A program made the translations under genes and the position numbers. A stretch of DNA of 30,547 nt from a virus (taxonomy: Duplodnaviria; Caudoviricetes): the IMG/VR virus record IMGVR_UViG_3300035419_000031, positions 1 through 30,547 of that record. One strand, written 5' to 3'. The notes below the pieces were generated by a model. It saw only the letters and a list, made by a program, of their open reading frames with translations. It made no database searches and was not told the origin of the DNA. Positions 1,253 to 28,108 of the stretch are shown piece after piece; positions within the stretch are counted from its first letter, which is position 1, and every line of letters starts with the position of its first letter.

Positions 1253-1622
1253 CTTTCTTGCCTAACAATGTCATCAAACTGTCAATAGCACTAACGTCTT
1301 CATCGGGATCACTACTGCTTTCAACTTCAACATTCGTTTGTGTTGGGGACCAACCACCCTTACTGCGTAAGAATAGCTCTGCTGCCTTAAAGTCACCGTC
1401 AAGGGCCTGTTGTATCACGACAGAACCAATCTGACCTACAATCTCTGCTCTCTCTGCTGCTATGTCATCACCATAGAGCTTATAGAAGGTTGCAGATGAG
1501 GAGGGTGCTTGTTGATACTTCTGGATAGAAGCCATAATGTCCTTAACAGCGACACCATTCCTGATACCGCTACGGACAGCTTTTGCGATGTTTTCGCTAT
1601 ACTTTATTTTGTCCATTACCAC
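1194..1622 (-). CDS. Probable terminase small subunit
   Basis: 142 aa directly upstream of and overlapping terL; N-terminal HTH-like segment (SSATFYKLY) and a QALDGDFKAAELFLRSKGGW segment typical of TerS. Confidence 0.75.
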   Translation of the reverse strand: MVMDKIKYSENIAKAVRSGIRNGVAVKDIMASIQKYQQAPSSSATFYKLYGDDIAAERAEIVGQIGSVVIQQALDGDFKAAELFLRSKGGWSPTQTNVEVESSSDPDEDVSAIDSLMTLLGKKDDSSNNGEGSENVTRLRSS

Positions 1623-1659
1623 GACACCTAAATAAATATACTGTTGGGGGGTTGTAGGG

Positions 1660-1752
1660 TACTATAGTATAACTTTAGTTTAAATCTATTTGTATAATGT
1701 GAGTAGTTATAACTTTAGTATACTATAGTATAGTACCTCTACACTATAGTAT
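1660..1752. repeat. AT-rich cluster of ACTATAGT palindromes and TATAACTTTAGT direct repeats
   Basis: TACTATAGTA 1660-1669, TATACTATAGTATA 1719-1732, ACTATAGT 1743-1750; TATAACTTTAGT at 1668 and 1708. Confidence 0.8.
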
Positions 1753-1778
1753 GGTACTTTTTTTAGCCACTGTAAACT
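1750..1778 (-). promoter_or_regulatory. Phage promoter motif, copy 1 (upstream of terS/terL)
   Basis: Minus strand reads AGTTTACAG-tggctaaaaa-AAGTACCATA; same blocks and spacing as at 7978 and 11866. Confidence 0.75.
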
Positions 1779-1798
1779 TTTATTTTGTCGCAAGCTGG

Positions 1799-1811
1799 TA
1801 ACTGGTTGAAA
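1799..1811 (-). promoter_or_regulatory. IHF-like site
   Basis: Minus strand TTTCAACCAGTTA, one mismatch to WATCAANNNNTTR. Confidence 0.4.
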
Positions 1812-2120
1812 ACAAAGGAAAGAAAGTTTAGTAGCTCAGGGACTACCGTGGGAACTAGTGTGACATATATGCAACACCTAAAGTATTTTTTTTTATTTTG
1901 GAGATAGGAGTGGATACGCACGGTGGTAAAAACGGGCCAGATTTTTCTGGGGGACCCTATGGGGTGGCCTAAAAATCACAGGTTTGAATAAAAACGCAAG
2001 TTTTCCCAAGTTTTTCTTGACACTCGGGGCGGGAGGGGCCAGCCCTTCACACTGTCGGACCATTGCCAAGCATTGGAAAAGCCGTTGTTCAATCTCATAT
2101 TATCCCCTTGTAAACTATGG

Positions 2121-2146
2121 AAAAAGGACGGGGCCTAAGCCCCGCC
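2121..2146 (-). terminator. Rho-independent terminator of the leftward module
   Basis: Minus strand GGCGGGGC-TTAG-GCCCCGTCC-TTTTT, about 20 bp after the stop of 2168..2779. Confidence 0.8.
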
Positions 2147-2167
2147 AGTTTGAGCCAACACAAGCCC

Positions 2168-2779
2168 TTAAACAATAACCGCATTTACACAAGTAACATG
2201 GTAAGCAGATACAGCGGCACCGGTGTCAAGCTTGCGGTTCGCTTTGTTACCGGCCACATATTTACACCATGAATTCCACCAATAGGCAGAGCCTTTTTGT
2301 TGTGTCATAGCAACATACGCTTGCACCTTGCGACGGGCTGTATCTGGTTTAACCTTGCCAAGCTTCACATGTTTTGCTTCCAGTCCTAAGCGTACAAGGT
2401 TATGACTATCAATACACGCCACGTTAAAGCCTAATTGCTGAGCAACAAAAGCCGCCTTGACCATGCCAAGATTAGGGATAGGTAGGAAAAGCTCAATAGC
2501 GGCAACGGCTGCATCTTGCGAGCGGGTGCCTAGGGTTTCCTTAATGTGGTTTACCTTGCCCCAAAGATAGGCGTCATGCGCTTGTGTATAGGCGTAACCT
2601 TTGCCCTTTTGTCCCCACATAAAGCGGCTGGAAGCGCCGTGCTTGTTGACGTCTGTTATTTGATCCAAGCATGTAGAAAGCCCCGCTTGTATGGTGCAGA
2701 GTGTAAAAGTTACAACGGGTAAAACCGACTGCTTGGCTTCACAAATATCTATTATTTGATTTACATGTTTTCTATACAT
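2168..2779 (-). CDS. Putative HhH-GPD superfamily DNA glycosylase-like protein
   Basis: LPIPNLGMVKAAFVAQQLGFNVACIDSHNLVRLG resembles the helix-hairpin-helix plus (V/I)DxH motif of EndoIII/OGG glycosylases; AGGGG RBS upstream. Confidence 0.55.
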   Translation of the reverse strand: MYRKHVNQIIDICEAKQSVLPVVTFTLCTIQAGLSTCLDQITDVNKHGASSRFMWGQKGKGYAYTQAHDAYLWGKVNHIKETLGTRSQDAAVAAIELFLPIPNLGMVKAAFVAQQLGFNVACIDSHNLVRLGLEAKHVKLGKVKPDTARRKVQAYVAMTQQKGSAYWWNSWCKYVAGNKANRKLDTGAAVSAYHVTCVNAVIV

Positions 2780-2783
2780 TGTC

Positions 2784-2837
2784 TCAGTCCCCTAAAATGA
2801 TAATTGCGGCGCTAATTAAAAAGATAACTTCAAACAT
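2784..2837 (-). CDS. Putative 17-aa hydrophobic peptide (MFEVIFLISAAIIILGD)
   Basis: ATG follows AAGGA and the repeated leader element; the stop lies 4 nt before the next ATG. Confidence 0.45.
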   Translation of the reverse strand: MFEVIFLISAAIIILGD

Positions 2838-2846
2838 TGTTTTGTG

Positions 2847-3158
2847 TCCTTGTGTTGGTGTGTTGGGGGCTTGTGCCCCCTTTTGTTTATACCCGAAAAA
2901 CTGCAATTTTGCGAGGGCTAGCGGCTTTGGGTGCGTGATTGCGAAAGCCTTGACCGAGCGGGGCAATCTCACCGTCTCTAATTGCCGCCTGTACAATATA
3001 GCGAGCTAGGTCACCATTTTGTCCAGTCATTTGCGCCATTTTTGAGGGGCTAATGATACCATGTGTTGCGATTAATGCGGCTTTGAATTGATTACGTGTC
3101 ATTTTGATTTATCCTTTTGTGTTGGTGTGTTGGGGCGCTGTGGCCCCTTTTAGGTTTA
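2847..3158 (-). repeat. Two copies of an intergenic hairpin plus leader element (about 2847-2889 and 3112-3158)
   Basis: Identical 19-mer TTGTGTTGGTGTGTTGGGG at 2850-2868 and 3117-3135, each joined to a GGGG..CCCC hairpin and the RBS; partial copy at 3350-3359. Confidence 0.85.
2887..3102 (-). CDS. Small hypothetical protein (possible wHTH DNA-binding protein)
   Basis: 71 aa, basic, AAGGA RBS, bounded by the repeated intergenic elements. Confidence 0.65.
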   Translation of the reverse strand: MTRNQFKAALIATHGIISPSKMAQMTGQNGDLARYIVQAAIRDGEIAPLGQGFRNHAPKAASPRKIAVFRV

Positions 3159-3350
3159 GATTAAGAACGATTTTATTTCTGACATGATACCGCTTTTCAT
3201 ATCTAAGCAGTCCTCGACTGTCGTGCCGTTGCGGTTTGGTTGACCGTCATCATTCAAGATATCTAACATGATGCTATCCCACGTTGCATAACGGCGCACC
3301 AGATTATCAATGTGGTCAAGTTTTTCTTGTGTTACGGTAGCATCTAACAT
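3156..3350 (-). CDS. Small hypothetical protein, first gene of the leftward module
   Basis: 64 aa, AAGGA RBS, downstream of a sigma70-like promoter. Confidence 0.7.
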   Translation of the reverse strand: MLDATVTQEKLDHIDNLVRRYATWDSIMLDILNDDGQPNRNGTTVEDCLDMKSGIMSEIKSFLI

Positions 3351-3389
3351 TGTGTTGGTTCCTTTTTTGTTTGTCGTTTCGATATAACT

Positions 3390-3418
3390 CTTATCGCTGA
3401 TTCGGGATTAGATGTAAA
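3390..3418 (-). promoter_or_regulatory. Sigma70-like leftward promoter
   Basis: TTTACA-17 bp-GATAAG on the minus strand, with an AT-rich upstream element, about 40 bp before the ATG at 3350. Confidence 0.6.
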
Positions 3419-3460
3419 CCCCAAAAATGCAAAAAATGCAGAAAAAGTGAATAAATCTTA

Positions 3461-3473
3461 TAAGCCCTTGATT
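3461..3473 (-). promoter_or_regulatory. IHF consensus site
   Basis: Minus strand AATCAAGGGCTTA matches WATCAANNNNTTR exactly. Confidence 0.55.
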
Positions 3474-3527
3474 TCAAACAATTCTTTTTTGATATGGGCA
3501 AAAAATCCTTATATACTATAATGAGTG

Positions 3528-3608
3528 GAACAAAAAAAGAACAAACCGTGAACAAACCATGAACGAACAAAACGTGAACAAAAGGTGAACAAACCATGAA
3601 CAGAGAAC
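3528..3608 (+). promoter_or_regulatory. Tandem array of alphaproteobacterial LexA (SOS) boxes, GAAC-N7-GAAC
   Basis: GAAC at 3528, 3539, 3550, 3561 and at 3565, 3576, 3587, 3598: two chains of 11-bp period giving six perfect boxes with A-rich spacers; extra GAAC at 3605. Confidence 0.75.
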
Positions 3609-3705
3609 AAATAGGGGGAACGCATGTCCCGTGTACCCTAGGCTGTCAAACCCGTTTCGGCATTCTGGGGCCGTTTCTGGGCCTCTGAGGGGTAACGGCG
3701 TGTAC

Positions 3706-3807
3706 TGCATAGCAGGTATGATCCAGACGCATGCCGTACATATTCATAAATTCATATATGTTTGTCCAGACAAATAAGCCATGCAAAAAATGCATAGCAG
3801 GTATGCA
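3706..3807. repeat. TGCATAGCAGGTATG direct repeat and ATGC-N7-GCAT elements (LysR-type operator-like)
   Basis: 15-mer at 3706 and 3791; ATGC-N7-GCAT-N7-ATGC at 3781-3806; ATGCAAAAAATGCA also at 3427. Confidence 0.65.
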
Positions 3808-3963
3808 AAAATAATTGTTGCACCGGTCCGTGGTTCTGCTATGCTGGTCGTAGAGGGTGAAAAGCCCCACATTGCCAACACACCCAAGGGCCAGATTTTT
3901 TAAATCGCAGTCGCAAAAGGTGGAAGGATGCGCAATCGAAATTGTGTTGCAAAAATGTCACAC

Positions 3964-4145
3964 TATCCCTTTGAGATATACCAAAAAGTCCTTGACTATC
4001 CTTTCGGGTAGGCAATCGGGGCAAAATAGTTCTTGACTATACCAAAGGATATAAAATGACTCAGAATAGTTCTTGACTATACTTTCGGATATAAAACCTA
4101 TCCTTTCGGATTGTCAAGAGATCATTGGGATATCTCATATGGATA
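3964..4145. repeat. Cluster of TATCC-N4-GGATA-type palindromes, several preceded by CTTGAC
   Basis: Copies at 3997, 4038, 4078, 4099; N5 variants at 3964 and 4131; AATAGTTCTTGACTATAC duplicated at 4025 and 4065. Confidence 0.75.
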
Positions 4146-4147
4146 GT

Positions 4148-4249
4148 GTTGCAAAAATGTCACAGTTGCATAAAAGTCACAGTTGCCAAAATGTCACTGT
4201 GGTAAAAAAGTCACTGTGTCATAAAAGTCACTGTTGCAAAAATGTCACA
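4148..4249 (+). repeat. Six tandem 17-bp repeats, consensus GTTGCAAAAAWGTCACW
   Basis: Units start at 4148, 4165, 4182, 4199, 4216, 4233; solo copies at 3945-3962 (+) and 1859-1876 (-). Confidence 0.9.
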
Positions 4250-4273
4250 AGGACGAAAATCGGGAAAATCAGA

Positions 4274-4436
4274 CCCCCCACCGTGGGAAATGACCCCCCG
4301 TGGAAATTAGCCACCCAAGCAAGGTTTTGCCGATATGCGTTGCCGATCTTGCCTCCCTACCGTGGGAATTAGCCCCCCGTGGAAATTAGTTGGGCAGAGG
4401 GTAAAAAAAGTACTTGACCCCCACCGTGGGAAATGA
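4274..4436 (+). repeat. Five copies of a C-run plus CGTGG(G)AA motif
   Basis: Copies near 4276, 4294, 4355, 4373 and 4419. Confidence 0.85.
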
Positions 4437-4442
4437 TTTAAG
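4414..4442 (+). promoter_or_regulatory. Sigma70-like rightward early promoter
   Basis: TTGACC-17 bp-TTTAAG, followed by AAGGAG RBS and the ATG at 4463. Confidence 0.6.
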
Positions 4443-4462
4443 GGTGTAAGAAAAGGAGAGAC

Positions 4463-4660
4463 ATGATGTCAGGAGCAACAGCAGAAGACTTTAACAAGTG
4501 GGAAGCCCACGCAAAGACTTTATCTAAGGAGTCACTAGAGTATGTGATTAGTGATTGTCGTGCAGCTAAAGAGGCAATGAGTGGGTGGAACCCCAATCGT
4601 GAGAACTACTACGCTGACCAATCTATGACATATAGCCAAGAGCTAAGGAGAAGAAAATGA
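4463..4660 (+). CDS. Hypothetical early protein
   Basis: 65 aa, strong RBS, first of a chain of overlapping ORFs. Confidence 0.75.
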   Translation: MMSGATAEDFNKWEAHAKTLSKESLEYVISDCRAAKEAMSGWNPNRENYYADQSMTYSQELRRRK

Positions 4661-5010
4661 GAGTTGAAGTTTACTGGAACCTGCGTAAGAGTTGTTATTC
4701 TGTTCGTGATTGTAGTACGGGCCGTGTAGTAGAACACACCAACAGCCTGTGGATCAGAAGACCTGAGTTTGTCGTGCGACAGGCTGGAAGGGAAAAGGTC
4801 CTACGTGACAAACAGAAGAATGTACACGCCTTTGTACGGGGCGAATTGGGAGAGGGTACACTGTTCCCAAATAAAGAGGGCAGCATAGCAACTTACAACC
4901 CATATAAATATTCTACCTTTGTAGATAAAAAAACTGAAAAAGTGCTTTACAATGCTAAGTATGCTATGTTAGAAACAGTTAATAACAAAGGAGTGATAGA
5001 ATATGTTTGA
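4657..5010 (+). CDS. Conserved phage hypothetical protein
   Basis: VYWNLRK..YSVR...GREKVLRDKQKNVHAFVRG...YNPYK, a pattern recognised from phage hypothetical proteins; ATGA overlap. Confidence 0.8.
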   Translation: MRVEVYWNLRKSCYSVRDCSTGRVVEHTNSLWIRRPEFVVRQAGREKVLRDKQKNVHAFVRGELGEGTLFPNKEGSIATYNPYKYSTFVDKKTEKVLYNAKYAMLETVNNKGVIEYV

Positions 5011-5206
5011 TAAAAGATCAGGTGGACCATTTGATTGTGGCGTAAGAGACTACTACTATGGACGTAACTCAAACCCACACTTCTACAGAGATGGGTGCAA
5101 CATGAAAGGAAAGTACACAGAGAACCTGACACAACAGGAAACCAAAGAGTTCCACGCTGGTTGGGATGATGCACAAGAGAGTGGATTTAGAAAGGAGTAT
5201 GACTAA
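5003..5206 (+). CDS. Phage hypothetical protein
   Basis: 67 aa, GGPFDCG..DYYYGR...PH pattern; AGGAG RBS. Confidence 0.75.
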   Translation: MFDKRSGGPFDCGVRDYYYGRNSNPHFYRDGCNMKGKYTENLTQQETKEFHAGWDDAQESGFRKEYD

Positions 5207-6703: not shown

Positions 6704-7358
6704 AATAGAAGTAGAGATGAATGGCTACATGGGAACTGACTTGATTGTATGTAATGCCGCCCGTGTGTCATTCAATAAAGAGACTGAGTGGGAATATGCT
6801 GACCCCTTTGGACCGCCAAACCTAAAAGAGAAGGATAGTAAACTAATCAAGTACCTAGCCAAGCACAAACACATGTCACCATTCGGACATTGCTTTGTGT
6901 CTTTTACAGTCAAGGCTCCTATCTTTGTTGCCCGTCAGTTGGTTAAGCATAAGTTCCTACGTTGGAATGAGGTAAGCCGTAGGTATGTTGACAGTGACCC
7001 TGAGTTCTATGAACCCATTTGGCGCAGCCGTGCAGATAATGTAAAGCAAGGGTCAGGTGGCCCAGTGGAAATTAGTCTGGATGCAGAGATGTTGTATCAC
7101 GCTACGATGCGCAATGCCCTGTCTACCTATGACAGTCTGCTAGAAGATGGTGTAGCCCCTGAGATGGCCCGTATGGTATTACCGCAAAACATGATGACTG
7201 AGTGGTGGTGGTCAGGTAGCCTAGATGCTTGGGCAGACATGTGCAAGCTACGTTGCTCTAGTGACACACAGGCTGAGACAAGAGAGGTAGCCAGTCAGAT
7301 TAGTGTCAAGATGTGGGAGTTATTCCCTGAGTCTTGGGAAGCGTTGAGGGCTAATTAG
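6693..7358 (+). CDS. thyX: Flavin-dependent thymidylate synthase ThyX
   Basis: NAARVSF, HKHMSPFGH, APIFVARQLVKH, WNEVSRRY, GVAPEMARMVLPQ, LRCSSDTQAETR. Confidence 0.95.
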   Translation: MHSEIEVEMNGYMGTDLIVCNAARVSFNKETEWEYADPFGPPNLKEKDSKLIKYLAKHKHMSPFGHCFVSFTVKAPIFVARQLVKHKFLRWNEVSRRYVDSDPEFYEPIWRSRADNVKQGSGGPVEISLDAEMLYHATMRNALSTYDSLLEDGVAPEMARMVLPQNMMTEWWWSGSLDAWADMCKLRCSSDTQAETREVASQISVKMWELFPESWEALRAN

Positions 7359-7492
7359 TGACCATAGGGGAGTTTATACCCTACATCATAGCCCAATCTG
7401 TCGTGCTAGGTAGTATAGCGTTTATACCGTGTTGGGTAATATTCTTAATAGTAATGCAAATAAGGAAAAGTAATGCAAGGAAACATAAATGA
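7358..7492 (+). CDS. Putative small membrane protein (44 aa)
   Basis: GTG start; MTIGEFIPYIIAQSVVLGSIAFIPCWVIFLIVMQIRKSNARKHK, one TM segment plus a basic tail; fills the thyX-sigma gap. Confidence 0.55.
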   Translation: MTIGEFIPYIIAQSVVLGSIAFIPCWVIFLIVMQIRKSNARKHK

Positions 7493-7998
7493 ACTATGAT
7501 ATGACAAACGAAGAGATGGCACACTACTTTGCTGCTAGGTATGGCAACCCTGAGAAGTACGAAGATTTGTACCAAGAGGCTTGGGTAGCCATCCTAGAGG
7601 CAGAGGGCAAGGGCTTAGATAGAAAGGGTGTGTACTGGCATGTGAAGCCCCATGTGAGCCGATATTATAACTACCGTGACCGTGTAGTGCCACTACCACC
7701 CAGAGGCGGCTCTAAGAGCTTGCTAGAGGGCCATGAGATTGAATACGACATCAAGGATTATATGTCTATCTCACCAGACCATGCGGAAGCCTACGAACTA
7801 AAAAGGGAAGTAGATTTTATGCTAAAAAACATGGCAGAGGGGCTTGCATGTCAAGACAGACAAGTGCTAGAAGATATACACTACAAAGGCAAGAGCTACA
7901 GAGATTTGGCAAAAGAACGTGGTTACAGTCACGTATGGTGGCAAAAATATCACACTCAGCTTTTAAATAAGCTAAAAAGTTTACAGGACCCAAATTAA
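7489..7998 (+). CDS. Phage-encoded sigma70-family (ECF-sized) sigma factor
   Basis: Region-2-like YEDLYQEAWVAILEA and region-4-like L..QDRQVLEDIHYKGKSYRDLAKERGYS HTH. Confidence 0.75.
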   Translation: MNYDMTNEEMAHYFAARYGNPEKYEDLYQEAWVAILEAEGKGLDRKGVYWHVKPHVSRYYNYRDRVVPLPPRGGSKSLLEGHEIEYDIKDYMSISPDHAEAYELKREVDFMLKNMAEGLACQDRQVLEDIHYKGKSYRDLAKERGYSHVWWQKYHTQLLNKLKSLQDPN

Positions 7999-8052: not shown

Positions 8053-9630
8053 ATGTCAGAGAAAGCACATCAACCATGTCCATATGTAGATTGTGGATCG
8101 TCAGATGCCTTTAGTTATAATACTAATGGTTATGGGCGTTGTCATAGTTGTGAAAGGGGATACCCGTCAAAAGATGCTATGCAACCTTGGGCAAAGGAGA
8201 GATACCCCACCGTGGAAAAAGATGGATATAATGATCTTAGGTCTATGTTGTCTAATACAGCTACCCCTGTAGTGGAAACTAAAGGCACGTTTAAAGAGAT
8301 GCGAGGCATTCAGTCACGCACAATGGAAGAGTACGGTGTGTACACCTTCAACGACACACAAGAATACATCTACCCCTCTGGGGGAAAGAAAGTCAGAGTA
8401 GTATCTGACAAGAAGTTCTTTACTAAGGATGGCTTCAAGGGTGACGAACTGTTTGGTATGAACCTGTTTCCAGCAGGTAGTAGTAAATTTGTCACAATCA
8501 CTGAGGGTGAGCTAGATGCCATGTCAGTGTGGCAGATGATTAAATCTCAGTACACTACTCCTGTCGTGTCTCTACCATCAGCAACCCCGTCAAAGAAGCT
8601 GTGGGAGAATTGCAAAGAGTGGTTAGACAGCTTTGAGAAGATTATTCTGTCTGTCGATACAGATGACGCTGGCAACGCTATAGCTGACCGTATGGCTCGC
8701 TTGTTTCCTAACAAGGTCTACCGTGTAGATCATGGCAAATACAAGGACGCAAACGATTTCCTACAGGCTGGGGCAGCACAACAGTTTAAGAACGTCTGGT
8801 GGAAGCCTATCAAGCACACACCAGAGAATGTTATCAATACTGCTGACCAGTTTCTAAAGATGTATGACGAAACACCAGAGCATGTCTACGTGCCTACAGG
8901 CATACAGGCACTGGATGACAAGATCTTAGGGCTTATGCAGGGTCACTTTACTATGTTCAAGGCCCCCACAGGAATTGGTAAGACTGAGCTTATGCGTTAC
9001 CTAGAGTATCAGATGCTACAGAGAAATATTCCTATTGCTACTTGGCACCTAGAGGAAACAAAGTTGCGTTCACTCTTAGGTCTTGCGTCCTATGAGATGA
9101 ATGACAATGTAACAAGGCGTGACCTTATCGAAGAGAAGGGAGTAGACGCAGAGGTACGTGGTGCCATTGTAAAGCTAACCAAGGATGAAAACCTGTATCA
9201 ATTCTATTTACAGGACGGACAGGGTGCCGACGAATTATGCGATCAGATACGCTTTTTCAGTCAGGCATGTGATTGCAAGTTTGTCTTTTTCGAGCCAATT
9301 CAAGATGTTATCAGTGGTTCGAGTGAGGACAGCAAGGAGCAGCAGCTTGCAGACCTGTCCGTCCGTCTGTCAAAGTTGGCAGCGGAGCTTAACATTGGTA
9401 TTGTGTCAATCGGTCACACCAACGAAAACGGTGATTTTAAGTATTGTAAGATGATTGGTCAACGTGCTAGTGTTATCATAGATTTGTACCGTGACAAGGA
9501 GTCAGAAGATTTGGAAGAGAGAAACACAACGTATCTCAAGATTGAAAAGAACCGCCCATCATCAGAAGAGGGATCAGCAGGGCGCATGAGGTTCAACTAC
9601 GATACATTTACATTGAGGGAGATCCTGTAG
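8053..9630 (+). CDS. T7 gp4-like DNA primase-helicase
   Basis: Zn finger (CPYVDCGSSDA...CHSC), TOPRIM ITEGELDAMS and DTDDAG, KDANDFL, Walker A APTGIGKT, IEKNR. Confidence 0.95.
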   Translation: MSEKAHQPCPYVDCGSSDAFSYNTNGYGRCHSCERGYPSKDAMQPWAKERYPTVEKDGYNDLRSMLSNTATPVVETKGTFKEMRGIQSRTMEEYGVYTFNDTQEYIYPSGGKKVRVVSDKKFFTKDGFKGDELFGMNLFPAGSSKFVTITEGELDAMSVWQMIKSQYTTPVVSLPSATPSKKLWENCKEWLDSFEKIILSVDTDDAGNAIADRMARLFPNKVYRVDHGKYKDANDFLQAGAAQQFKNVWWKPIKHTPENVINTADQFLKMYDETPEHVYVPTGIQALDDKILGLMQGHFTMFKAPTGIGKTELMRYLEYQMLQRNIPIATWHLEETKLRSLLGLASYEMNDNVTRRDLIEEKGVDAEVRGAIVKLTKDENLYQFYLQDGQGADELCDQIRFFSQACDCKFVFFEPIQDVISGSSEDSKEQQLADLSVRLSKLAAELNIGIVSIGHTNENGDFKYCKMIGQRASVIIDLYRDKESEDLEERNTTYLKIEKNRPSSEEGSAGRMRFNYDTFTLREIL

Positions 9631-13930: not shown

Positions 13931-14265
13931 TGTATTCAGCTAAGGACATGAAAGATATGATTGACATGTACTCACAGTTTGTAGAGGACAAGATGCTTAC
14001 CAAGGGGCGTGAGCGGTTAATTGAGAATGCACTAGGTCTTACTGGCGAAGCTGGTGAGGTATCAGAGAAGATCAAGAAATTGTTTCGTGATAAGCGAATT
14101 GATGACGATGCGGTCTTGAAAGAGCTAGGAGATGTACTATTTTATACGGTAGCACTATCCAACATCTTTGGTGGCAGTTTGATTAAGATTATCGAATTGA
14201 ACATGGAGAAGTTGAATAGTCGTGTAAAGAATGGTACACTACAAGGATCAGGAGATAATCGGTGA
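13927..14265 (+). CDS. mazG: MazG-like nucleotide pyrophosphohydrolase
   Basis: LGLTGEAGEVSEKIKK...KELGDVLFY...NMEKLNSR...GSGDNR. Confidence 0.9.
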   Translation: MMYSAKDMKDMIDMYSQFVEDKMLTKGRERLIENALGLTGEAGEVSEKIKKLFRDKRIDDDAVLKELGDVLFYTVALSNIFGGSLIKIIELNMEKLNSRVKNGTLQGSGDNR

Positions 14266-14471
14266 GTAAGAAGAAATCAGGCATGTCGTGGTTCTGGCGT
14301 TACATGAACTACCTTGCGACATGGCGAAGTCACCGAATAGCAATTAAACAGCTAAACCAGTTGACCGACAAAGAGCTATATGATATTGGAATAGCTAGGT
14401 CAGACATTGATCGAATGGTCTGGTTAGAAGAAGATAAAACTATGAGAGCGAGAGGAAAAGAACAAGAATGA
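14262..14471 (+). CDS. DUF1127 (YjiS-like) small protein
   Basis: WRSHRIAIKQLNQLTDKELYDIGIARSDI matches the R...L..L.D..L.DIG..R.DI signature. Confidence 0.85.
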   Translation: MSKKKSGMSWFWRYMNYLATWRSHRIAIKQLNQLTDKELYDIGIARSDIDRMVWLEEDKTMRARGKEQE

Positions 14472-19614: not shown

Positions 19615-20325
19615 CTAGTCGTACCAAACTCCACAAACCCTAACAGACTGGCCTGTTAATAGAACATCTACACCTGTAGTTTTGTGGGCTGTATACATAT
19701 AAGTGTAGTATAGGTTTGTAGCGAAACCCATTTGCGTAGAATTACCCCAAACAGTTAAATGTCTATCGTCTTCATCTCTCTCATAAATATTGCCAATTTT
19801 AATACAGTCACCAACCGCATAACCATTCTGTGCAACAGTAATAATTACTTCCCCCCAAACAAAATCTGGCCTAGAGGACTGACCGTGATTGGCTACGTGA
19901 TACTTGGCAGTAGTGGCAGTCGATGTAGCTCCTCGCACGATAGTAACTTTATGCTGATCTATTGCAGCTTTTACTTTAGCTGGTGATACGAGGCTCTCAG
20001 TTGTACCTGTACCTGTTGTCCATGTGGACGTAGCTTGATCTCCCAGCACACCTATTTGAGTACCAGATGTATTTACAACTTGTGTGTTATCAAGTATTTC
20101 CCAGTTAGCCCCATCTAAGTAAGCTACACTAATCCAAGCATTGTCAGACTCATTTCTGATTTTTAGTAAGTTTGTGTCATTCTCATACCACCACATGTTA
20201 GCGTAGGTGGTAGAAGGTGCCGAATTGCCACTATTGTTAGACGCCAGAGCCTGTAACGCACTGTTTATGTCGGTCCTTGCGTTAGAGGCTGTTTGGTTGG
20301 CTATTGAAAAGTCATGTTGTGACAT
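19615..20325 (-). CDS. Tail fibre / receptor-binding protein (putative)
   Basis: MSQHDFSIANQ...RTDINSALQALASNNSG..APSTT...WW N-terminus typical of fibre anchors; follows the tail tip gene. Confidence 0.7.
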   Translation of the reverse strand: MSQHDFSIANQTASNARTDINSALQALASNNSGNSAPSTTYANMWWYENDTNLLKIRNESDNAWISVAYLDGANWEILDNTQVVNTSGTQIGVLGDQATSTWTTGTGTTESLVSPAKVKAAIDQHKVTIVRGATSTATTAKYHVANHGQSSRPDFVWGEVIITVAQNGYAVGDCIKIGNIYERDEDDRHLTVWGNSTQMGFATNLYYTYMYTAHKTTGVDVLLTGQSVRVCGVWYD

Positions 20326-20328
20326 TAA

Positions 20329-23091
20329 TTAATACTCCACTGTGGCACTTAGTGCCGTTATGTTCGGGGTTACGTTTACACCAGTATTAGATAAGATTGC
20401 TCTGAATTGTACATACCTTCCAGTTACCTCACCAGTAGCAGTAACATAAGATGCACTAGATAAACCACCAGTAGTTGTAGCAGACCTAGCTTGAATTAAT
20501 ACTGCAAAGTCATTAAAGTTTGCTGTTTCGTTTGTCCAAGTATCCCAATTATCAGGCCAAGTATCCCAGTTGTTAGGTATATCATCCCAGTTTACTTGAC
20601 CACCACTTGCATTAGCATGTTTTCTGGTAAATGTAACTGCACTAGACAGCCTTATGGTACGACTAGTTCCTACATCAAAGTAACCTGCGCCATTATGGTC
20701 AAAATTATAAGTCCCAGTTGCACCGTAAGATGAGGAATCCGTCATAAACAGGTTTCCAGAGGAAACTGTAAGATTTGTCTTACTTCCGCTAAACCCTGTG
20801 CTTTCAGTATGGGTGTCACTTTGACCTAATGCTGGCAACTCACTTGATAAAATAGTTGTAGTTGCAGCAGTTGTACTCTCATTACCAGTTTTATCTACAG
20901 AGGATACAAAGTATTTTCCAGCCAGTGCTGGTGCAGTAACAGACGTTGCAGGTCTGGCTATTCTGTCTACTTGTACTATATTAGACGCATCCTTAAAATT
21001 AGCACCTGTAGTTGAAGAGTAGTACAACTTATAGTGAGATAAATCTAAATCAGAAACGGGAGGCCAACTAAAGAAACTTGTACCACCAGATAATTGATGA
21101 GACAAGGAGCTAGGAGAGGATGGGGGTGTAGTATCTGCTGTTACGTTAAAGGTAGTAGATATAGTATCTCCTTTAAAGCCAAGTCCGTTTACAGGTGTTA
21201 CTGAAACAGTGTAGTTTATTGGGCCTTCATTAATTTGAGGTGCGTCTACACCAACAATTTCAAACCTACCAGCATTGTCGCCTTCATCTACTAAAATTGT
21301 TTGACCTACTGATTTAAACTCAAGGTCACTAGTCTTTCTGTATTTTAGTATTACAGAGTCAATCCTATCAATATCATTACTGGTAATTGACACAATCAAC
21401 GCATTAACTACATTTTCGTTTACTTCTCTATACTCTTGAGAAACTGTAACACCAATAGTAGGTACTTCATAGTATTTTAAAAGGGTACTATTATTTGAAA
21501 TTATAGTTTGTTCATCACTTAAATCAAATCCAAAGGCTGCTTGACTGCTTTCCCGAAGAGATAAATTTACTCTAATATCTCCGTCTGCATCAGGATTAAG
21601 TCTCCAACCTATAACCTCAAAGGTTTTTTCAGAACCAGTAGACCAACCGTATCTATCATTACGGAACTTTATAAAGTCTCCTACCTCAATGTCTAAGGCT
21701 TCTAGTCCAAAGTCGGCTGACAAAGAAATTTGCTCTCTGTTACGATAAAGCATTTGTTTTGCTAGTCTTTGCGCAGCTAAAACATTTGTAGTGTAAGGCA
21801 ACGGTAAGTCCATTGTTGCTTCTACATTATTGTCATCAGCCAAAAATACCGAAGACTCTATTGCTGGATAATCTGCACTGACCCAATCATTGTCCTTGTC
21901 AATAAAAGTACCAGAAACTCTGTTAAAGTTATCTCTCATAGATGCTTTAGTATTCAAAGTTATAGGACCACGTAAATCATCCATAGTTAAGGTTTTTGTA
22001 GGGGTAATGAAATCACCAGCATATAGCTTCCAGTAACCACCGCCCCAGAATAAAGACCCACCACAAGCAGCCACTAGCTGTGTTAATACGTCACCAACAT
22101 TCTGACTTAAATCTACAACACCATTAACTTGATATTGCTCAGACCCGTCAGATAAAACATCTGTCTCTGCGCAAATATCAGCCGCAGCCTCAAATGTTGC
22201 ATAGTCAATTTGATCGTCGTTAAGGCCGTATTCACTTGTCAGAAAATCTCTGATAACCCAAGCTGTGTTTGTTGTATATACAGCAGACTGCTCTGTGCCA
22301 CTAGATGTCTTTACAATCTTCTTGCCTTTAACTTTAGCGGTAACTGTTGGTAGTCCACCAACAAAGGCATCTTGATTGTACTCAAACCTACAATATAAAT
22401 AGGCAATATTCTTACCTACAAAATCACTTGTGGCAGAGGTTTCTGCGATAAGTGAGTTAGCCAAGTTATTGCTAGAGTTTGCAAAAGCACTTGTCGCACT
22501 AGTTTGATTTCCAGTATGCTTATACACCGTTGCTACATAGTGATTAGTGATTGTTTCTACGACAGGCGCATCTTCGTCTGCCTTAGTCCTTGTTGTAGTA
22601 GTGTAGGTATAACGTGAATCAGTAACAATTGGACCTGACATACTTACTACTTCATCATTAAAGTATATGTCACCAATCTCTTCAACTTCATGCCCAGCCA
22701 AAACAATAATCTGATGTAGTATCTTATTCTCTGTTCCACCCGTACTCTCAAGAAAAGTAATAGTGCCGCCCTTACGAACTTGACCATACACTAATTCTGA
22801 TGAGGTTGTAGCTCCTTTAGCGTTAGTAAGCAGACCATTGCTTCCAGCCGCACTACCCATGTCTGGCTTTGGGGATAAAGCAGATAACAATGCAGAAGTA
22901 ACAAGTGTAGTAGCAATATACCCTACAGCGTAATAGGTTAGGTAAGTTGTCATGGTCATTGCTGCTACAGCACTTGCAGAAACCCCTGCACCAGTGATAA
23001 TATAAGCACCAACAGTTACAGGATCACGGGGTACTCTATCCCAATCGTTCCAGTTCTTTATAGTGTAGTCACCTAGTTTGTATTTAGACAT
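20329..23091 (-). CDS. Tail tip attachment protein / central fibre (lambda J-like)
   Basis: 920 aa; LVYGQVRKGG, HEVEEIGDIYFND, GLPTVTAKVKGKK, FNRVSGTF, AQRLAK; fibronectin-III-like DTTPPSSPS...VDKTGNES. Confidence 0.85.
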   Translation of the reverse strand: MSKYKLGDYTIKNWNDWDRVPRDPVTVGAYIITGAGVSASAVAAMTMTTYLTYYAVGYIATTLVTSALLSALSPKPDMGSAAGSNGLLTNAKGATTSSELVYGQVRKGGTITFLESTGGTENKILHQIIVLAGHEVEEIGDIYFNDEVVSMSGPIVTDSRYTYTTTTRTKADEDAPVVETITNHYVATVYKHTGNQTSATSAFANSSNNLANSLIAETSATSDFVGKNIAYLYCRFEYNQDAFVGGLPTVTAKVKGKKIVKTSSGTEQSAVYTTNTAWVIRDFLTSEYGLNDDQIDYATFEAAADICAETDVLSDGSEQYQVNGVVDLSQNVGDVLTQLVAACGGSLFWGGGYWKLYAGDFITPTKTLTMDDLRGPITLNTKASMRDNFNRVSGTFIDKDNDWVSADYPAIESSVFLADDNNVEATMDLPLPYTTNVLAAQRLAKQMLYRNREQISLSADFGLEALDIEVGDFIKFRNDRYGWSTGSEKTFEVIGWRLNPDADGDIRVNLSLRESSQAAFGFDLSDEQTIISNNSTLLKYYEVPTIGVTVSQEYREVNENVVNALIVSITSNDIDRIDSVILKYRKTSDLEFKSVGQTILVDEGDNAGRFEIVGVDAPQINEGPINYTVSVTPVNGLGFKGDTISTTFNVTADTTPPSSPSSLSHQLSGGTSFFSWPPVSDLDLSHYKLYYSSTTGANFKDASNIVQVDRIARPATSVTAPALAGKYFVSSVDKTGNESTTAATTTILSSELPALGQSDTHTESTGFSGSKTNLTVSSGNLFMTDSSSYGATGTYNFDHNGAGYFDVGTSRTIRLSSAVTFTRKHANASGGQVNWDDIPNNWDTWPDNWDTWTNETANFNDFAVLIQARSATTTGGLSSASYVTATGEVTGRYVQFRAILSNTGVNVTPNITALSATVEY

Positions 23092-23497
23092 CTGGCACCC
23101 AACAACTTTCTATATCTTCTAAGTGTAATTTTATAAGACCATCTTTACTTAGGAACACACAACGTGACCCCAAGGATATGCCCATAGCATAGCCTGTCAT
23201 CCACCTTTGACATTTCTTTGTTGTCACTAAGCTACCAAAGATAGGTCTGTCACAAGGTCTAAGTCTGGAAATCAAGGCTTCATTTAGAAGAGAAAACTTA
23301 AATGTTTCTTTTAACTTCTTACGGCTCATTGGTTGGCCTTCTATCATGTATTTACCAACCCAATCATCTGCCCAACCTCTTCCATACATTGCTTTCCAAG
23401 CACCATTAGTAAAGGTAAAACAATCGTGGACACCCCACTCAAATGGGATATCTACAACCTCACTTAGATAGTTGTTTAACTCGACTTTCTTCCCCAT
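23084..23497 (-). CDS. NlpC/P60-like tail assembly protein
   Basis: PFEWGVHDCFTF motif; position just before the tip protein. Confidence 0.75.
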   Translation of the reverse strand: MGKKVELNNYLSEVVDIPFEWGVHDCFTFTNGAWKAMYGRGWADDWVGKYMIEGQPMSRKKLKETFKFSLLNEALISRLRPCDRPIFGSLVTTKKCQRWMTGYAMGISLGSRCVFLSKDGLIKLHLEDIESCWVPDV

Positions 23498-24027
23498 GCT
23501 ACTTGAACATCTTGTATGTCTTGAACATAAGAAAAGAATGTATCACCATCGTATCGGGATTGGTGGTTTTCATCGGTGTATCTCCAATTAGCTGCACGTT
23601 CTAGTTCTATTAGTTTGCTCTCTATGGTTAGTTGAACAGTAGCGCCTTCTGCTGAGTCCTCAATATTCATGGTGTTCATTTGACCACTAAATATTTGAAC
23701 CACATTAGATACACTTTGTTCGCCTAAATATATTTTAGCTTGACGCCTTTGATAAGGCTCTTGTAAAGCTAAGGATATTATAGAGCTATCTAGTCCAGTA
23801 AGTGTTATTGACATAGACTTAGCTGAAAGGTCACTTACTTCCTCAGAAGGTCCAACACTCAACAAAGAACCTGTACCAGTGTAAGTATTGCTGTCTATAG
23901 TTCTGTCACCTATGCCAGTCCAGAACCTTAGTGTACCGTTATCAAAGAATAACTCAACAGCATAGTAAGGCTCTACAAGATCACCAGTAAGGGCTGTAAG
24001 TAAACTTGCATTTATGGTACGGCTCAT
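23476..24027 (-). CDS. Minor tail / tail tip protein
   Basis: LRFWTGIGD...YTGTGSLL...RYTDENHQSRYDGDTFFSYV...WGR; synteny. Confidence 0.75.
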   Translation of the reverse strand: MSRTINASLLTALTGDLVEPYYAVELFFDNGTLRFWTGIGDRTIDSNTYTGTGSLLSVGPSEEVSDLSAKSMSITLTGLDSSIISLALQEPYQRRQAKIYLGEQSVSNVVQIFSGQMNTMNIEDSAEGATVQLTIESKLIELERAANWRYTDENHQSRYDGDTFFSYVQDIQDVQVAWGRKSS

Positions 24028-24611
24028 CCTACAACCTCCGTTGCACCGAATGAGATGCCATAGAAACTGGCATCATTTACTGACCAAGCAGTCTCATTAG
24101 AAGCAAGCCTAAACACACCAGATGCACTAGTTAAATCAGCAGACACAGAACTACGAGCTTTACGCAACTTAGGCCAAATCTCTAGGGTTCCACTACCTGA
24201 CTTGTCTACTAGAACCTTGTGCAGTGTAGAATCAGATGCAGTGCCTAGCTGTATGTAATCACCAGCCTTTAATGTACCTGACATTGTAACGGTAACACTA
24301 CTATCACCAGCAGACCCTGTGATGGTTGCAGAGGTGGCTGTACCTCTCACTGAGGTAGCAGAAGGGTCATTCAGTAGGAAAGTACCGTAACGACCTTTTA
24401 GGCTCATCAGGAAGGCTATCCAGCTTTCTGCATCATCCCTGTTCATTGGTGGTAGGGTAACATCCGCTTCCCATATTTGACCATCGTAGGCGTAGACAGT
24501 TTGTTTGTAAGTGAAGGGGCTAGAAGATACCGCAACAGTATTCTTAGCCCTTAACTCAATACTAGCCATACCAATATTAGTTGGCAGGTCTAAAGGATAC
24601 GATATAGCCAT
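24024..24611 (-). CDS. Distal tail protein (putative)
   Basis: Directly after the tape measure gene; SPFTYKQ...WEADVTLPPM...FLMSLKGRYGTF. Confidence 0.75.
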   Translation of the reverse strand: MAISYPLDLPTNIGMASIELRAKNTVAVSSSPFTYKQTVYAYDGQIWEADVTLPPMNRDDAESWIAFLMSLKGRYGTFLLNDPSATSVRGTATSATITGSAGDSSVTVTMSGTLKAGDYIQLGTASDSTLHKVLVDKSGSGTLEIWPKLRKARSSVSADLTSASGVFRLASNETAWSVNDASFYGISFGATEVVG

Positions 24612-26380
24612 TATGCAAATGCCTTTCCATAGTTACCGCCACGCCTCTTACTGTCAACTACAGCAGATTTGGCAGTCTCAGCAATTTGTGGCATAAGGTT
24701 ACGGATCTCTGCACGTACAGTCTGAGATACCCCAGTGGAAATGTTTAAGTTCTGTACTACAGTTACACCACCACCCATATTGTCGTTAGCTACGACACCA
24801 CCATTAGATGAAGGTACGAAGAGTTCTGGTCCCCTTTCCCCTACAAGGTAAGGCTGTCCAGCAGTAACAGGTCCACCATTAGCTCTAGGTTTAAACATAC
24901 CACCTAAGAAACCAGCTAAACCAGAACTTTTTTCTGGCTCTGCTGCATTGAAGCTACCAACCATCCGTTGTACGACAAGAACTCTATACAACTGCCTGAT
25001 AATGTCAGCAGCCATGTCCCTAAAGGCTTCTTCTACAGTCTTAGTTCTTTCAGCTATAGACATAAGACCACTCTCAACAGATCTTGAGATGTCATTAACA
25101 AGACCTTGGTACTGCTTGTACTTTTCTATAAGGTTTCTTAGATTCTCGGCGTCTTGTTTGTTTTTATCAGCAAGAGCTTTCTTAGCTTGCCTCTCCGCTT
25201 CCTCAGTAGCTTTGATTGTTTCTAGGCGTCTAAACTCTGTCAGTTCAAGTTGGTGAGCAGATTCCAACGCATCTATAGCTGCTTTAGCCTGACCCTTTGA
25301 AAGATCAAGGTTTTCATCTCTTAGTTTTCTTCTAAGGGCCTCTGCTTCATTAGATTGCTTGAGTATGAAAAGATCTTCTCTGCTGGCATTAGCAGACATC
25401 ATGGCAGTCATAGCACGATCTATGTTAGCTTCTTTTAAGTTAGTTGCTAACTCTAGTGCTTTTTCTCTATCTTCTTTGCCCGTTCCAAACCTTTCGTCAG
25501 CTTCTTCAAACTTTCTCTTGTTGGCATAGAAGTCCTCAAGGGCTTTCTTAGCGGCAGCTAATCTATCTTCTGTACCCTCTGTAAAACCAAAGCCAAAGCC
25601 AAGTCTAACGCCTTTGGTAAAATCATAGAGGCCAGTTGCTCCACGTATATCAGTTTGATTTTTTCTTCTTGCGTCAGCGTGTTCTTTTGTTTTTTCAGCT
25701 AGGTTTAACTTTAAGAGTGCTTCTGTCTGATCCTCAATGCCATTGACAAGCATGTAGGTTTGCAACCTAAAGTCTTTGACACTACTTTTAGCTGCATCCA
25801 TAGCTTCTTTATAAGTCGTAAGACCAGTAGTACCTTCTTCACCAGCTTTTCTAGCGGCAACAAAAGCACCAGCCAAACCAGTACCAATGGCAAGTATCAT
25901 ACCTGCAATAGCACCAGCAGGGCCAAAGATACCAAGTAACTGTGAACCTTGTTGACCAAGGGCAACTAACGCACTAGTACCGCCTTGTACCTGTACTGCG
26001 AAATCCTGTACCTGATAACCGACCTGCTGCATACCAACAGCGCCGAATTTCTTAACCTTACGTGTATTTACGTCTGCAACTTGACCAAATTGGTTTATTG
26101 TTACGCCAGCTTGTGCGGCTTGCTTTTGTATTTGAGCAAAGGTTTGTGAGTACTCTTTTTGAGTTATAGCACCAGTAGAAACAGCCTTTTGAGCAATCAG
26201 TACTTGTTCTTTAAATACCTTAGTAGCCCTGTATGCAGGGTCAATAGCCATTTTAAGTTGACTGAATGACTTTTTCGCTGTCTTAGCGGTCAAATCAATC
26301 TTATCTTCTGTAGTGTTTAGATAGTCGTTAAGGACCTTGAGATCCGTAACGTCTACACTAACTTTAATCGAACTAGCCAT
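24611..26380 (-). CDS. Tail tape measure protein
   Basis: QVGYQVQDFAVQVQGG...LGQQGSQLLG (lambda-type TMP), Ala/Lys-rich helices, C-terminal RANGGPV...YLVGERGPELFVP. Confidence 0.92.
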   Translation of the reverse strand: MASSIKVSVDVTDLKVLNDYLNTTEDKIDLTAKTAKKSFSQLKMAIDPAYRATKVFKEQVLIAQKAVSTGAITQKEYSQTFAQIQKQAAQAGVTINQFGQVADVNTRKVKKFGAVGMQQVGYQVQDFAVQVQGGTSALVALGQQGSQLLGIFGPAGAIAGMILAIGTGLAGAFVAARKAGEEGTTGLTTYKEAMDAAKSSVKDFRLQTYMLVNGIEDQTEALLKLNLAEKTKEHADARRKNQTDIRGATGLYDFTKGVRLGFGFGFTEGTEDRLAAAKKALEDFYANKRKFEEADERFGTGKEDREKALELATNLKEANIDRAMTAMMSANASREDLFILKQSNEAEALRRKLRDENLDLSKGQAKAAIDALESAHQLELTEFRRLETIKATEEAERQAKKALADKNKQDAENLRNLIEKYKQYQGLVNDISRSVESGLMSIAERTKTVEEAFRDMAADIIRQLYRVLVVQRMVGSFNAAEPEKSSGLAGFLGGMFKPRANGGPVTAGQPYLVGERGPELFVPSSNGGVVANDNMGGGVTVVQNLNISTGVSQTVRAEIRNLMPQIAETAKSAVVDSKRRGGNYGKAFA

Positions 26381-26729
26381 TTATTGCCCTCACGTAAAGT
26401 AGGTCTAATTTCTTTATGACATCTACTTCCCAACCTTCAAGGGTATTGTCAGTAGTCTCTTGCCACGCTTTTATCTCTGTGAATGTTAGAGGTTGTGGGC
26501 CACTGTAACCAAATTGCCTACCCCCACTGATGGAAAAGAAGGAAGACCAGACATGAGCCATAGGGAAAGGAAACTTAGGGGCTTCTAACTCTTTTGGCTT
26601 ACGTCCAGTCTGTTTGGCAACCTGTTCCAAGTGTGCCGATTCAGTTACGCCTTTACTGTCGGATCTCATTAGCTTGAAACTATGTTCAGCAAATGCCTCT
26701 AGCTGATCGACTAGGCGATTGAAAAATTT
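26373..26729 (-). CDS. Tail assembly chaperone, frameshift extension (gpT-like portion)
   Basis: Track ORF 26373..26669 stays open upstream to the slippery site in the -1 frame; PLTFTEIKAW motif. Confidence 0.8.
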   Translation of the reverse strand, partial: KFFNRLVDQLEAFAEHSFKLMRSDSKGVTESAHLEQVAKQTGRKPKELEAPKFPFPMAHVWSSFFSISGGRQFGYSGPQPLTFTEIKAWQETTDNTLEGWEVDVIKKLDLLYVRAING

Positions 26730-27109
26730 AAGAAGTCAGTCAGGGCTTGTTCAATCTGGGTCTTCATCCAGAAAACCTCTGTGTAAACCTCTTCGCATTT
26801 CTCAACCGTGCAGGGTGGTTTCTCACCATCAAATGTAATGTTCCACATCTTAGTTGTGTGGATTAGAGTTTGAAGTGTGCCTTCTTCTAGGTCTTCTGAT
26901 TTTAGCTCAAAGCTACCACCGTCAGAAACCTGTGTAAGACGTTTATTAGTCTGCTGATGCAGAACGTCCTTGTATGGCTTACTGTGAGGTGCCCACATGG
27001 TAATAGTCATAGGGGTATCATCAGGGTTCATAAGGGGTTCACTAGTGTTAGGGTGAACCAGCTTAACTTCAAATGTATCACTCTTAGGTGTTAAGTCTTT
27101 TAAATCCAT
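26711..27109 (-). CDS. Tail assembly chaperone (gpG-like)
   Basis: Between tail tube and tape measure genes; ends DFLNFSIA with heptamer A AAT TTT. Confidence 0.85.
   Translation of the reverse strand: MDLKDLTPKSDTFEVKLVHPNTSEPLMNPDDTPMTITMWAPHSKPYKDVLHQQTNKRLTQVSDGGSFELKSEDLEEGTLQTLIHTTKMWNITFDGEKPPCTVEKCEEVYTEVFWMKTQIEQALTDFLNFSIA
26723..26729 (-). other. Programmed -1 ribosomal frameshift site (A AAT TTT)
   Basis: X XXY YYZ in frame, 3 sense codons before the stop; the -1 frame reads FNRLVDQLEAFAEHSFKL into MRSDSKG. Confidence 0.8.
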
Positions 27110-27140
27110 TGTCGAGTCTCCTTCGGGATTAAGTCGGGTA

Positions 27141-27182
27141 AAATAAAGTGGGGGGCATCGGACCCGACACCAACACCCCCCG
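27141..27182 (-). terminator. Probable terminator or attenuator after the tail tube gene
   Basis: Minus strand GGTGTCGG-GT-CCGATGCC stem within G/C runs, followed by ACTTTATTTT. Confidence 0.6.
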
Positions 27183-27196
27183 TTCCTAGCTAGGAA

Positions 27197-28108
27197 TTAC
27201 GCTGCTCTTGTAATCTTAAAGCTGGTTGTATCTGTAGTGTTGTACAACGCTGTAAAGCTACATGAGATAATGCGACTTGTTGGGCCATCGACACCAACAT
27301 CTGCACTGTTAATTTTTACACGAGGGAAGAAGAACGTCATGTCCTTTGTACCATCCCCTACAGACACAGTAAGTTCTGATTCTGTTTCGTTTACAAATCT
27401 GTTAATGATAGCTGCATCTTCAAAGTACACTGACATAGTACCTTCTAACTCTGCACGACCAACCTCTAAGCTAGGGGCAATGTTATCACCTACAACATAA
27501 GTTGGGGCAAAACCGTTAGTCAAAGTAAAGTCAAAGCTAGTTACGATAGCAGCAGTTGCTGGCGTACCATCTGCATTACCTATGGTCACATTGCCTGAGT
27601 AGGAATCAAAGGGTGTAGTAGTTGAGTCTGAGTCAGTAGCTGCAATCTGGGTTGCTGTAACTTCCATGTCACGACCCACAACACCAAAGGTAGTTGTTAC
27701 CATCTGGTTTGGTGCAATAGATACCCCTAAAGTGTTTACGGCGCAACCTCTAAAGAAGCGAGCTTGGTCAATGTCAGCGGCATAGTCTTGTACAGTAAAA
27801 TACTTTGGTGTAGTTCCGATAGTAAGGTTATTAGTTGCCCAAGTACTTAACATGGCACTCTCTAGCCAATCGTCGTACTCTTCATCACGTAGGTCTACTA
27901 CAATATCCCCTGCGATTGATTTGTTGCCATGACGCTGTACCCGTGGCATACGATCTGCTTGAATGTCATTTCCGACAACAGCATCTTTAGTCATATTCAG
28001 TGAGTGTGTACTGAATGGTAAATTTACAAAGCCTGACGTTGCTGGTGTTACGAAATTTGATTGCGTAGCATACGAGAGGCTTGAACGTGAACCCTGTGCA
28101 AAGGCCAT
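27197..28108 (-). CDS. Major tail tube protein
   Basis: 303 aa; AQGSR..., DRMPRVQRHGNKSIAGDI, FRGCAVN, FPRVKI; synteny. Confidence 0.88.
   Translation of the reverse strand: MAFAQGSRSSLSYATQSNFVTPATSGFVNLPFSTHSLNMTKDAVVGNDIQADRMPRVQRHGNKSIAGDIVVDLRDEEYDDWLESAMLSTWATNNLTIGTTPKYFTVQDYAADIDQARFFRGCAVNTLGVSIAPNQMVTTTFGVVGRDMEVTATQIAATDSDSTTTPFDSYSGNVTIGNADGTPATAAIVTSFDFTLTNGFAPTYVVGDNIAPSLEVGRAELEGTMSVYFEDAAIINRFVNETESELTVSVGDGTKDMTFFFPRVKINSADVGVDGPTSRIISCSFTALYNTTDTTSFKITRAA

Follow-up and report, generated by a model that had tools for sequence, protein, structure and literature searches.

The question raised by this locus is why a phage keeps a gene-free region in which unrelated families of operator-like repeats follow one another. 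The window, i.e., the whole stretch of DNA that was analysed (30,547 bp), is the whole of its own record and represents a tailed-phage fragment with two arms. Roseobacter phage CRP-6 is the top match for its TerS (71%), primase (75%) and TerL (85%), and the sole DNA match of region 3351-4462 among 50,697 phage records; the RNR of the window is nearer to other CRP phages. Its core genes and gene order place the window with the CRP-6-type roseophages, and since the core genes are closest to those of CRP-6, a host in the Roseobacter group, within the Rhodobacteraceae, is likely. The region 3351-4462 forms the common upstream region of both early arms, and its features, with related ones elsewhere in the window, are as follows.

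3351-4462, unstranded: gene-free control region, with the leftward early mini-arm (2168-3350) on one side and the rightward early/replication arm (starting at 4463) on the other
3388-3418, minus: putative leftward sigma-70 promoter by sequence (TTTACA, weak -10)
3461-3473, minus: IHF consensus match, present in 8 of 33 homologous regions
3489-3522, plus: sigma-70-like promoter TTGATA-17-TATACT with overlapping TATAAT, directly before the LexA chains
3528-3601, plus: six LexA boxes of alphaproteobacterial type (GAAC-N7-GAAC), in two chains of three with shared half-sites
3706-3722, minus: LsrB/VtlR-type LysR box by sequence match, one mismatch (mismatch copy at 3709)
3781-3807, minus: LysR-type operator ATGC-N7-GCAT-N7-ATGC, containing an exact GCAT-N3-TG-N3-T box
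3875-3941, unstranded: conserved 67-bp block, 90% identity in the divergent relative L118
3944-3961, plus: single 18-bp C-box of porin-promoter type, likely for ChvI (sequence, host matrix)
3963-4145, unstranded: degenerate TATMC-N4-GKATA palindromes, five or six in number, of which three immediately follow TTGAC
4147-4249, plus: six C-boxes with a 17-bp period (18-bp sites, one-base overlap)
4274-4436, plus: five polar copies of CCC-N-(A/C)GTGG(G)AA, the fifth of them within the promoter spacer that follows TTGACC (4414)
1859-1876, minus: extra C-box, in the non-coding sequence that precedes the small terminase gene
7061-7075, plus: polar motif inside thyX; more copies near 8207, 10187, 18882, 24730 and 26526, all plus
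7489-7998, plus: phage sigma-like protein, with Atlas language-model neighbours carrying Sigma70_r4 at 0.97

The initial annotation had described the genome as otherwise packed with genes, but a second non-coding stretch lies at 1623-2167. Besides the extra C-box it holds ACTATAGTA repeats and, at 1845, a polar-like motif; a hairpin resembling a terminator lies at 2127-2146. The stretch is a candidate terminus or late-promoter region. The adjacent mini-arm gene (2168-2779, minus strand) encodes a 203-aa protein with at least 80 viral relatives and a weak Atlas lead toward an HhH/Ogg glycosylase-like fold (0.95; 21% of cluster members). A repeated TGTGTTGG-GC hairpin unit, also found in relatives, lies between the mini-arm genes (2851-2881 and 3118-3147). 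The tape-measure and tail-fibre-J genes (19615-28108, minus strand) suggest a long tail, whereas CRP-6 is described as short-tailed (PMC6918029); the main text of that paper does not contain the words 'non-coding', 'noncoding' or 'terminal repeat'.

The repeats far exceed chance expectation. Using patterns derived from the observed repeats, none of 1000 dinucleotide shuffles of 3351-4462 reached the counts for the LexA boxes (6, shuffle mean 0.03), the 17-bp unit (7, mean 0.007), the TATCC-type palindromes (5, mean 0.045) or CGTGG(G)AA (10 overlapping matches from five copies, mean 0.02). Nor is the array an assembly artefact, because a single contig from the independent run X4 spans 2042-5200 with 2 differences. 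Rfam gave no match to a structured RNA in 1600-4700, and RNA run X20 covers the sequence in pieces only and is uninformative on transcription. Every block listed by the initial annotation was recovered, in the order given there, with some revision of detail. The IHF consensus match (3461-3473) is single and, by itself, does not reach significance (P 0.10). The LexA chains, previously drawn as 3528-3608, end at 3601, and the ATGC-N7-GCAT elements are exact only at 3781-3795; what recurs at 3706 and 3791 is GCAT-N7-ATG. The TATCC-N4-GGATA palindromes are present, but none is perfect. The six 17-bp repeats gain a seventh at 3944-3961 and the inverted one at 1859-1876, and the five CGTGG(G)AA motifs are not confined to this locus, as copies also lie inside genes.

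Which proteins might read these sites was assessed in host genomes from the family of the Rhodobacterales MAG G001, taken as Rhodobacteraceae. The alphaproteobacterial LexA operator is the direct repeat GTTC-N7-GTTC (PMC8565304), of which the window has six exact boxes; these predicted sites match the host LexA operator type, as found before SOS genes. Such boxes gave 12 matches in five host genomes versus 5 for the control, and among ten annotated host loci four lie before imuB-type genes and one before tag. In the window the chains begin 6-11 bp past a -10-like hexamer; between relatives the LexA arrays are shifted by 105-790 bp.

The ATGC/GCAT block likewise matches an LsrB/VtlR-type host operator. 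The LsrB/VtlR box GCAT-N3-TG-N3-T (PMC7486931, PMC8844928) occurs exactly at 3794-3806 (minus strand), within the T-N11-A arrangement of LysR sites. The longer pattern of the block matches 38 times, in 33 host genomes out of 121, and never in the reversed control, which is probably biased low by TA dinucleotides; about 7 of the 38 look like one conserved coding stretch. Among 30 host loci (42 of 47 ORFs scanned), nine sites precede efp and two each precede aceE, purL and ruvC, a coherent gene set for a predicted operator. In Agrobacterium, LsrB/VtlR activates genes for small hypothetical proteins. The window itself encodes a DUF1127 small protein (14262-14471, plus strand). The small proteins activated in Agrobacterium are, we presume, DUF1127 proteins. 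NtrX, with the box motif GCA-N9-TGC (PMC7240162), was rejected for the GCA-N9-TGC element, which at host mraZ scores below shuffled matrices (28 genomes).

For the 17-bp unit, or C-box, a matrix was built from 43 phage sites and no host sites. In front of the DUF3576 gene it reaches 10 bits or more in 19 genomes out of 27, with 3 truncated loci left out, against a shuffled median of 0.7 bits; at the mraZ control promoter it is not significant. The conserved host form at these sites, TGRTGCA-N4-TGCCACA, used as a pattern derived from the same DUF3576 sites, has 66 matches in 59 of 101 genomes versus 1 in the control; in 30 of its loci (ORFs scanned for 28) a porin gene is flanked in 18, and a porin and/or DUF3576 gene in 24. 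An exact C-box scan of all genomes returned 120 loci, with a porin or DUF3576 gene flanked in 6 of 35 selected proteobacterial ones, and loose patterns gave noisy matches in hosts. The C-box matches a conserved host site at the major-porin promoter and is a predicted operator there. Across the sampled family, the divergent porin/DUF3576 promoter and the sequence before efp each have a conserved host operator (loci L502-L531; L408, L414, L418 and others).

ChvI is the likely C-box binder, as predicted from the 11-bp half-site period, the envelope target and a related site in front of an OmpR-family gene that diverges from pckA. Host copies hold GCC in one half, but the C-box is an exact match to neither of the published ChvI motifs (GCC repeats 11 nt apart; TTGC-N3-GCAA). 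At the promoter between pckA and the divergent OmpR-family gene, named chvI by synteny, the phage-only matrix is not significant (p 0.10); a relaxed pattern, set after hits had been seen, occurs in 13 of 29 such promoters versus a shuffle mean of 0.8 and 1 of 26 at mraZ. Caulobacter ChvI-target promoters show a few C-box-like stretches by eye (PMC9731502, supplement 4). The name 'bamF' for the DUF3576 gene found no confirmation and was dropped, together with the ChvI link that it would have provided.

The TATCC palindrome is only weakly tied to regulators of the NarL/FixJ family. Counts in 121 host genomes are not enriched (about 76 sites versus about 78 in the control); the hits are locally clustered, and among 30 loci four flank genes with REC and GerE domains, three FIST genes and three polysaccharide genes. 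The initial annotation had named a lack of the motifs at host promoters as a refutation; this does not hold for three blocks, which do occur at matching ones, with the TATCC block a weak fourth.

The sole leader CGAATC of the window (3399-3404) lies in the spacer of the putative leftward promoter. Of 20 TTGAC promoter variants in relatives, 17 have CGAATC at offset 13. GcrA has a YGAKTCK-type GANTC consensus and reaches DNA mainly via sigma-70 (PMC4647560). The relatives' CGAATC corresponds to a GcrA-type site at sigma-70 promoters, with methylation predicted. In four of six long genomes, including CRP-6, 12-20 CGAWTC sites are concentrated in one leader kb with about none beyond; this peak is absent from the window and from G155. 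GANTC is depleted in the window (37 versus about 115 expected). In CRP-6 (L406 42433-44882), G156, G157 and G158, GANTC is rare over the genome as a whole but dense across mini-arm and leader, also within GGAGTC ribosome-binding sites and promoter spacers. Promoter-like matches as such are not enriched over shuffles (7 versus 6.3), and the TTGACC of the window (4414) has no good -10. CRP-6 has no annotated RNA polymerase, and none was detected in the window ORFs that were scanned. The sigma-like product of 7489-7998, an ORF with no match in Pfam, PHROG or NCBIfam, is a candidate later transcription factor.

To see how constant the arrangement is, two scans yielded 159 viral loci and a pattern scan 3 more; regions with at least three polar copies plus 900 bp upstream were kept and deduplicated to 33. 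As many of these are close kin, the module counts are not independent: TATCC-type sites occur in 26, at least seven CGAWTC in 24, C-boxes in 23 (at least four in 11), LsrB-type sites in 21 (strict form in 16), LexA boxes in 16 and IHF matches in 8, with CtrA-like matches single and sporadic. Module order is similar across relatives, and content changes. Immediately ahead of the polar cluster the window has its six C-boxes; in L128, L147, L157 and G157 this slot is taken by LexA boxes whose spacers incorporate CGAATC, and in L090 by TATCC/CGAATC mixes. CRP-6 (MK613348), the nearest isolate, has the slot with C-boxes, CGAATC and the polar motif, and lacks the LexA chains of the window. The initial annotation had judged the array to be more than two promoters require, and the overlapping packing, drift in copy number and swapping of modules bear this out.

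The fifth block behaves differently from the others and is probably a phage-specific oriented site rather than a host site. CCC-N0-6-TGGAAA is split between the strands 11:1 in the window and 12:3 in CRP-6; for 79 redundant terminase-anchored loci the split is 120:0. Outside the array, the polar motif exceeds a Markov null in the early arm (5 versus 0.1) and late arm (3 versus 0.05) of the window and in the early arm of CRP-6 (8 versus 0.12), whose late arm has none. Synonymous codon usage favours it in plus-strand genes (5/13 versus 0.38) and minus-strand genes (3/9 versus 0.45). A polar copy follows TTGAC in 16 sequence variants, 6 of which have a good -10 at 17 bp, the window not among them. 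The cobaviruses CRP-5, ICBM1 and ICBM2 have no dense array and, bar one match, no polar motif. A host Chi- or KOPS-like signal was rejected: five host genomes gave 5 matches versus 3 in the control, and 61 gave 120 versus 29, or about 2 per genome, far below the phage density; a host protein may still bind the motif. The nearest likeness is to the operators/stoperators of Cluster A mycobacteriophages, which are asymmetric, lie over the early promoter and genome-wide, and are largely oriented with transcription (PMC9283540). The likeness extends to the polar motif alone, which is similarly asymmetric, oriented and dispersed; unlike stoperators, its copies lie inside genes, and three window copies oppose late transcription. 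No HTH family match to a repressor was found among 30 small window ORFs, about one third of the genome being missing from the window.

As three kinds of site also lie before matching host genes, the array likely docks several host regulators. Our leading interpretation, to which we give somewhat less than an even chance, is that it serves the divergent early promoters as a docking platform of host regulators, titration being a side effect. Host regulators would gather on the array and would recruit and gate host RNA polymerase for the first phage genes. Activators of the ChvI, LsrB and NarL types may raise the local supply of sigma-70 holoenzyme, a role that GcrA on methylated CGAATC could play in most relatives. 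LexA would repress the promoter just before its chains, which would thus become more active when DNA is damaged. Later, a phage protein may occupy the polar copies at the main rightward promoter and throughout the early arm, stopping early transcription, and after tens of genome copies surplus sites would also titrate host regulators. That GcrA reaches DNA mainly via sigma-70 fits recruitment of polymerase better than free titration. Mapped terminal repeats of cobaviruses carry a few such sites, C-box-like in ICBM1 (L501 1-172) and LsrB-like in ICBM2 (L500 1-159), read by eye, which also speaks for docking. Against it, most sites lie 165-890 bp from the sole conserved rightward TTGAC, beyond the usual range of activators, and one slot is filled now by repressor sites (LexA), now by sites for a presumed activator (C-box). 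Resemblances to sites of PpsR, CRP, RegA, PhoB, DnaA, parS and MerR were set aside on spacing or context.

The same interchange of modules for unrelated signals in one slot would suit titration as the selected function, as proposed initially. In that case, for which the chances are distinctly lower, replicating phage DNA would sequester LexA along with GcrA and regulators of the ChvI and LsrB types; SOS repair would be turned on, and porin, envelope and cell-cycle genes turned down. The sites are very densely packed (29 of 44 C-box spacings in the homologous regions are 17 bp, LexA half-sites are shared, and CGAATC lies in LexA spacers of relatives), units are gained and lost within populations, and PhoB is perturbed by modest decoy numbers, the median factor-to-site ratio in E. 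coli being about 10 (PMC8599769). Per genome, however, only 2-7 sites are added for each regulator, so titration would come only after replication. Moreover, isolated GANTC sites bind GcrA weakly without sigma-70 (PMC4647560), several sites stand in promoter register, the conserved module order is unneeded by a pure sponge, and no more than 14 of the 33 regions have two LexA boxes or more. What stands of the initial proposal is the match of three blocks to host operators and the excess over the needs of two promoters; the fixed promoter register of several host-type sites and the probably phage-specific fifth block argue against it. In its broadest form, which we consider possible but doubtful, CRP-6-type roseophages would carry a protein-free modular sponge, its swappable SOS, porin, metabolism and cell-cycle operators draining factors during replication and the set being tuned to each host.

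Activators and repressors would also be interchangeable if bound host proteins coated a DNA end, because a coat ignores regulatory sign; such proteins could ratchet the genome in, block nucleases or displace a xenogeneic silencer. The GANTC pattern of four of six genomes, rare overall and dense over 3-4 kb after the small terminase gene, and the C-boxes inside the mapped terminal repeat of ICBM1 are compatible with this. Nevertheless we regard it as unlikely: the array is 1-2 kb from the likeliest end, and contig ends, which in close relatives scatter from 1663 to 2861, are, like depth, uninformative on termini and on the end that enters first. Still less probable is a replication origin at which the IHF site, an AT-rich tract and iteron-like polar repeats would load the phage primase-helicase. 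The IHF match does lie beside an A/T-rich tract, the direct repeats share one orientation and skews turn nearby, but skew tracks gene direction, polar copies are dispersed in genes with a spacing of 8-62 bp, and three blocks are accounted for as host transcription operators. The origin and DNA-entry readings of the initial annotation gained no positive support. Neutral slippage from one or two functional operators would explain the tandem gains and losses, including those of 40-bp units of the TATCC block in other strains, but is very improbable, given that spacers diverge while half-sites stay and that modules expand independently across the 33 regions.

Docking of host regulators has precedents with single factors. 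CtrA sites in control regions of alphaproteobacterial phages have been proposed as a readout of host state (Mascolo et al. 2022, PMC9437464), but these concern one factor in promoters, whereas the window stacks several; that phage set had no positional bias for GcrA, SciP or DnaA, in contrast to the sharp CGAATC peak in four of six genomes here. LexA boxes of GIL01 and Spo0A/Spo0J sites of phi29 are likewise host repressor sites on early promoters, with one or two factors, few sites and no swappable multi-factor array (PMC9437464). Synthetic PhoB decoy arrays demonstrate that extra response-regulator sites can titrate, but are engineered and plasmid-borne and speak to feasibility only (PMC8599769). 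A literature search, with most subscription papers outside its reach, turned up no description of a natural phage DNA sponge for several factors. While single-factor host sites on phage DNA are known, the sites for envelope and metabolism regulators, the family-wide swapping of modules and the polar motif are new.

If the sponge interpretation were true, the cell would be reprogrammed, with porin output possibly lowered against superinfection. If several regulators dock here, phages would be using not just single host factors but a stacked set of them that can be swapped; the marine phages concerned form a group reported as widespread (PMC6918029). As CRP-6, an isolate with a cultured host, carries the same slot, docking and titration can be directly tested against each other. 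The phage arrays also point to little-characterised operators of the Rhodobacteraceae, such as the porin-promoter box and the efp box, and from the modules of a phage it may be possible to predict the regulators of its host.
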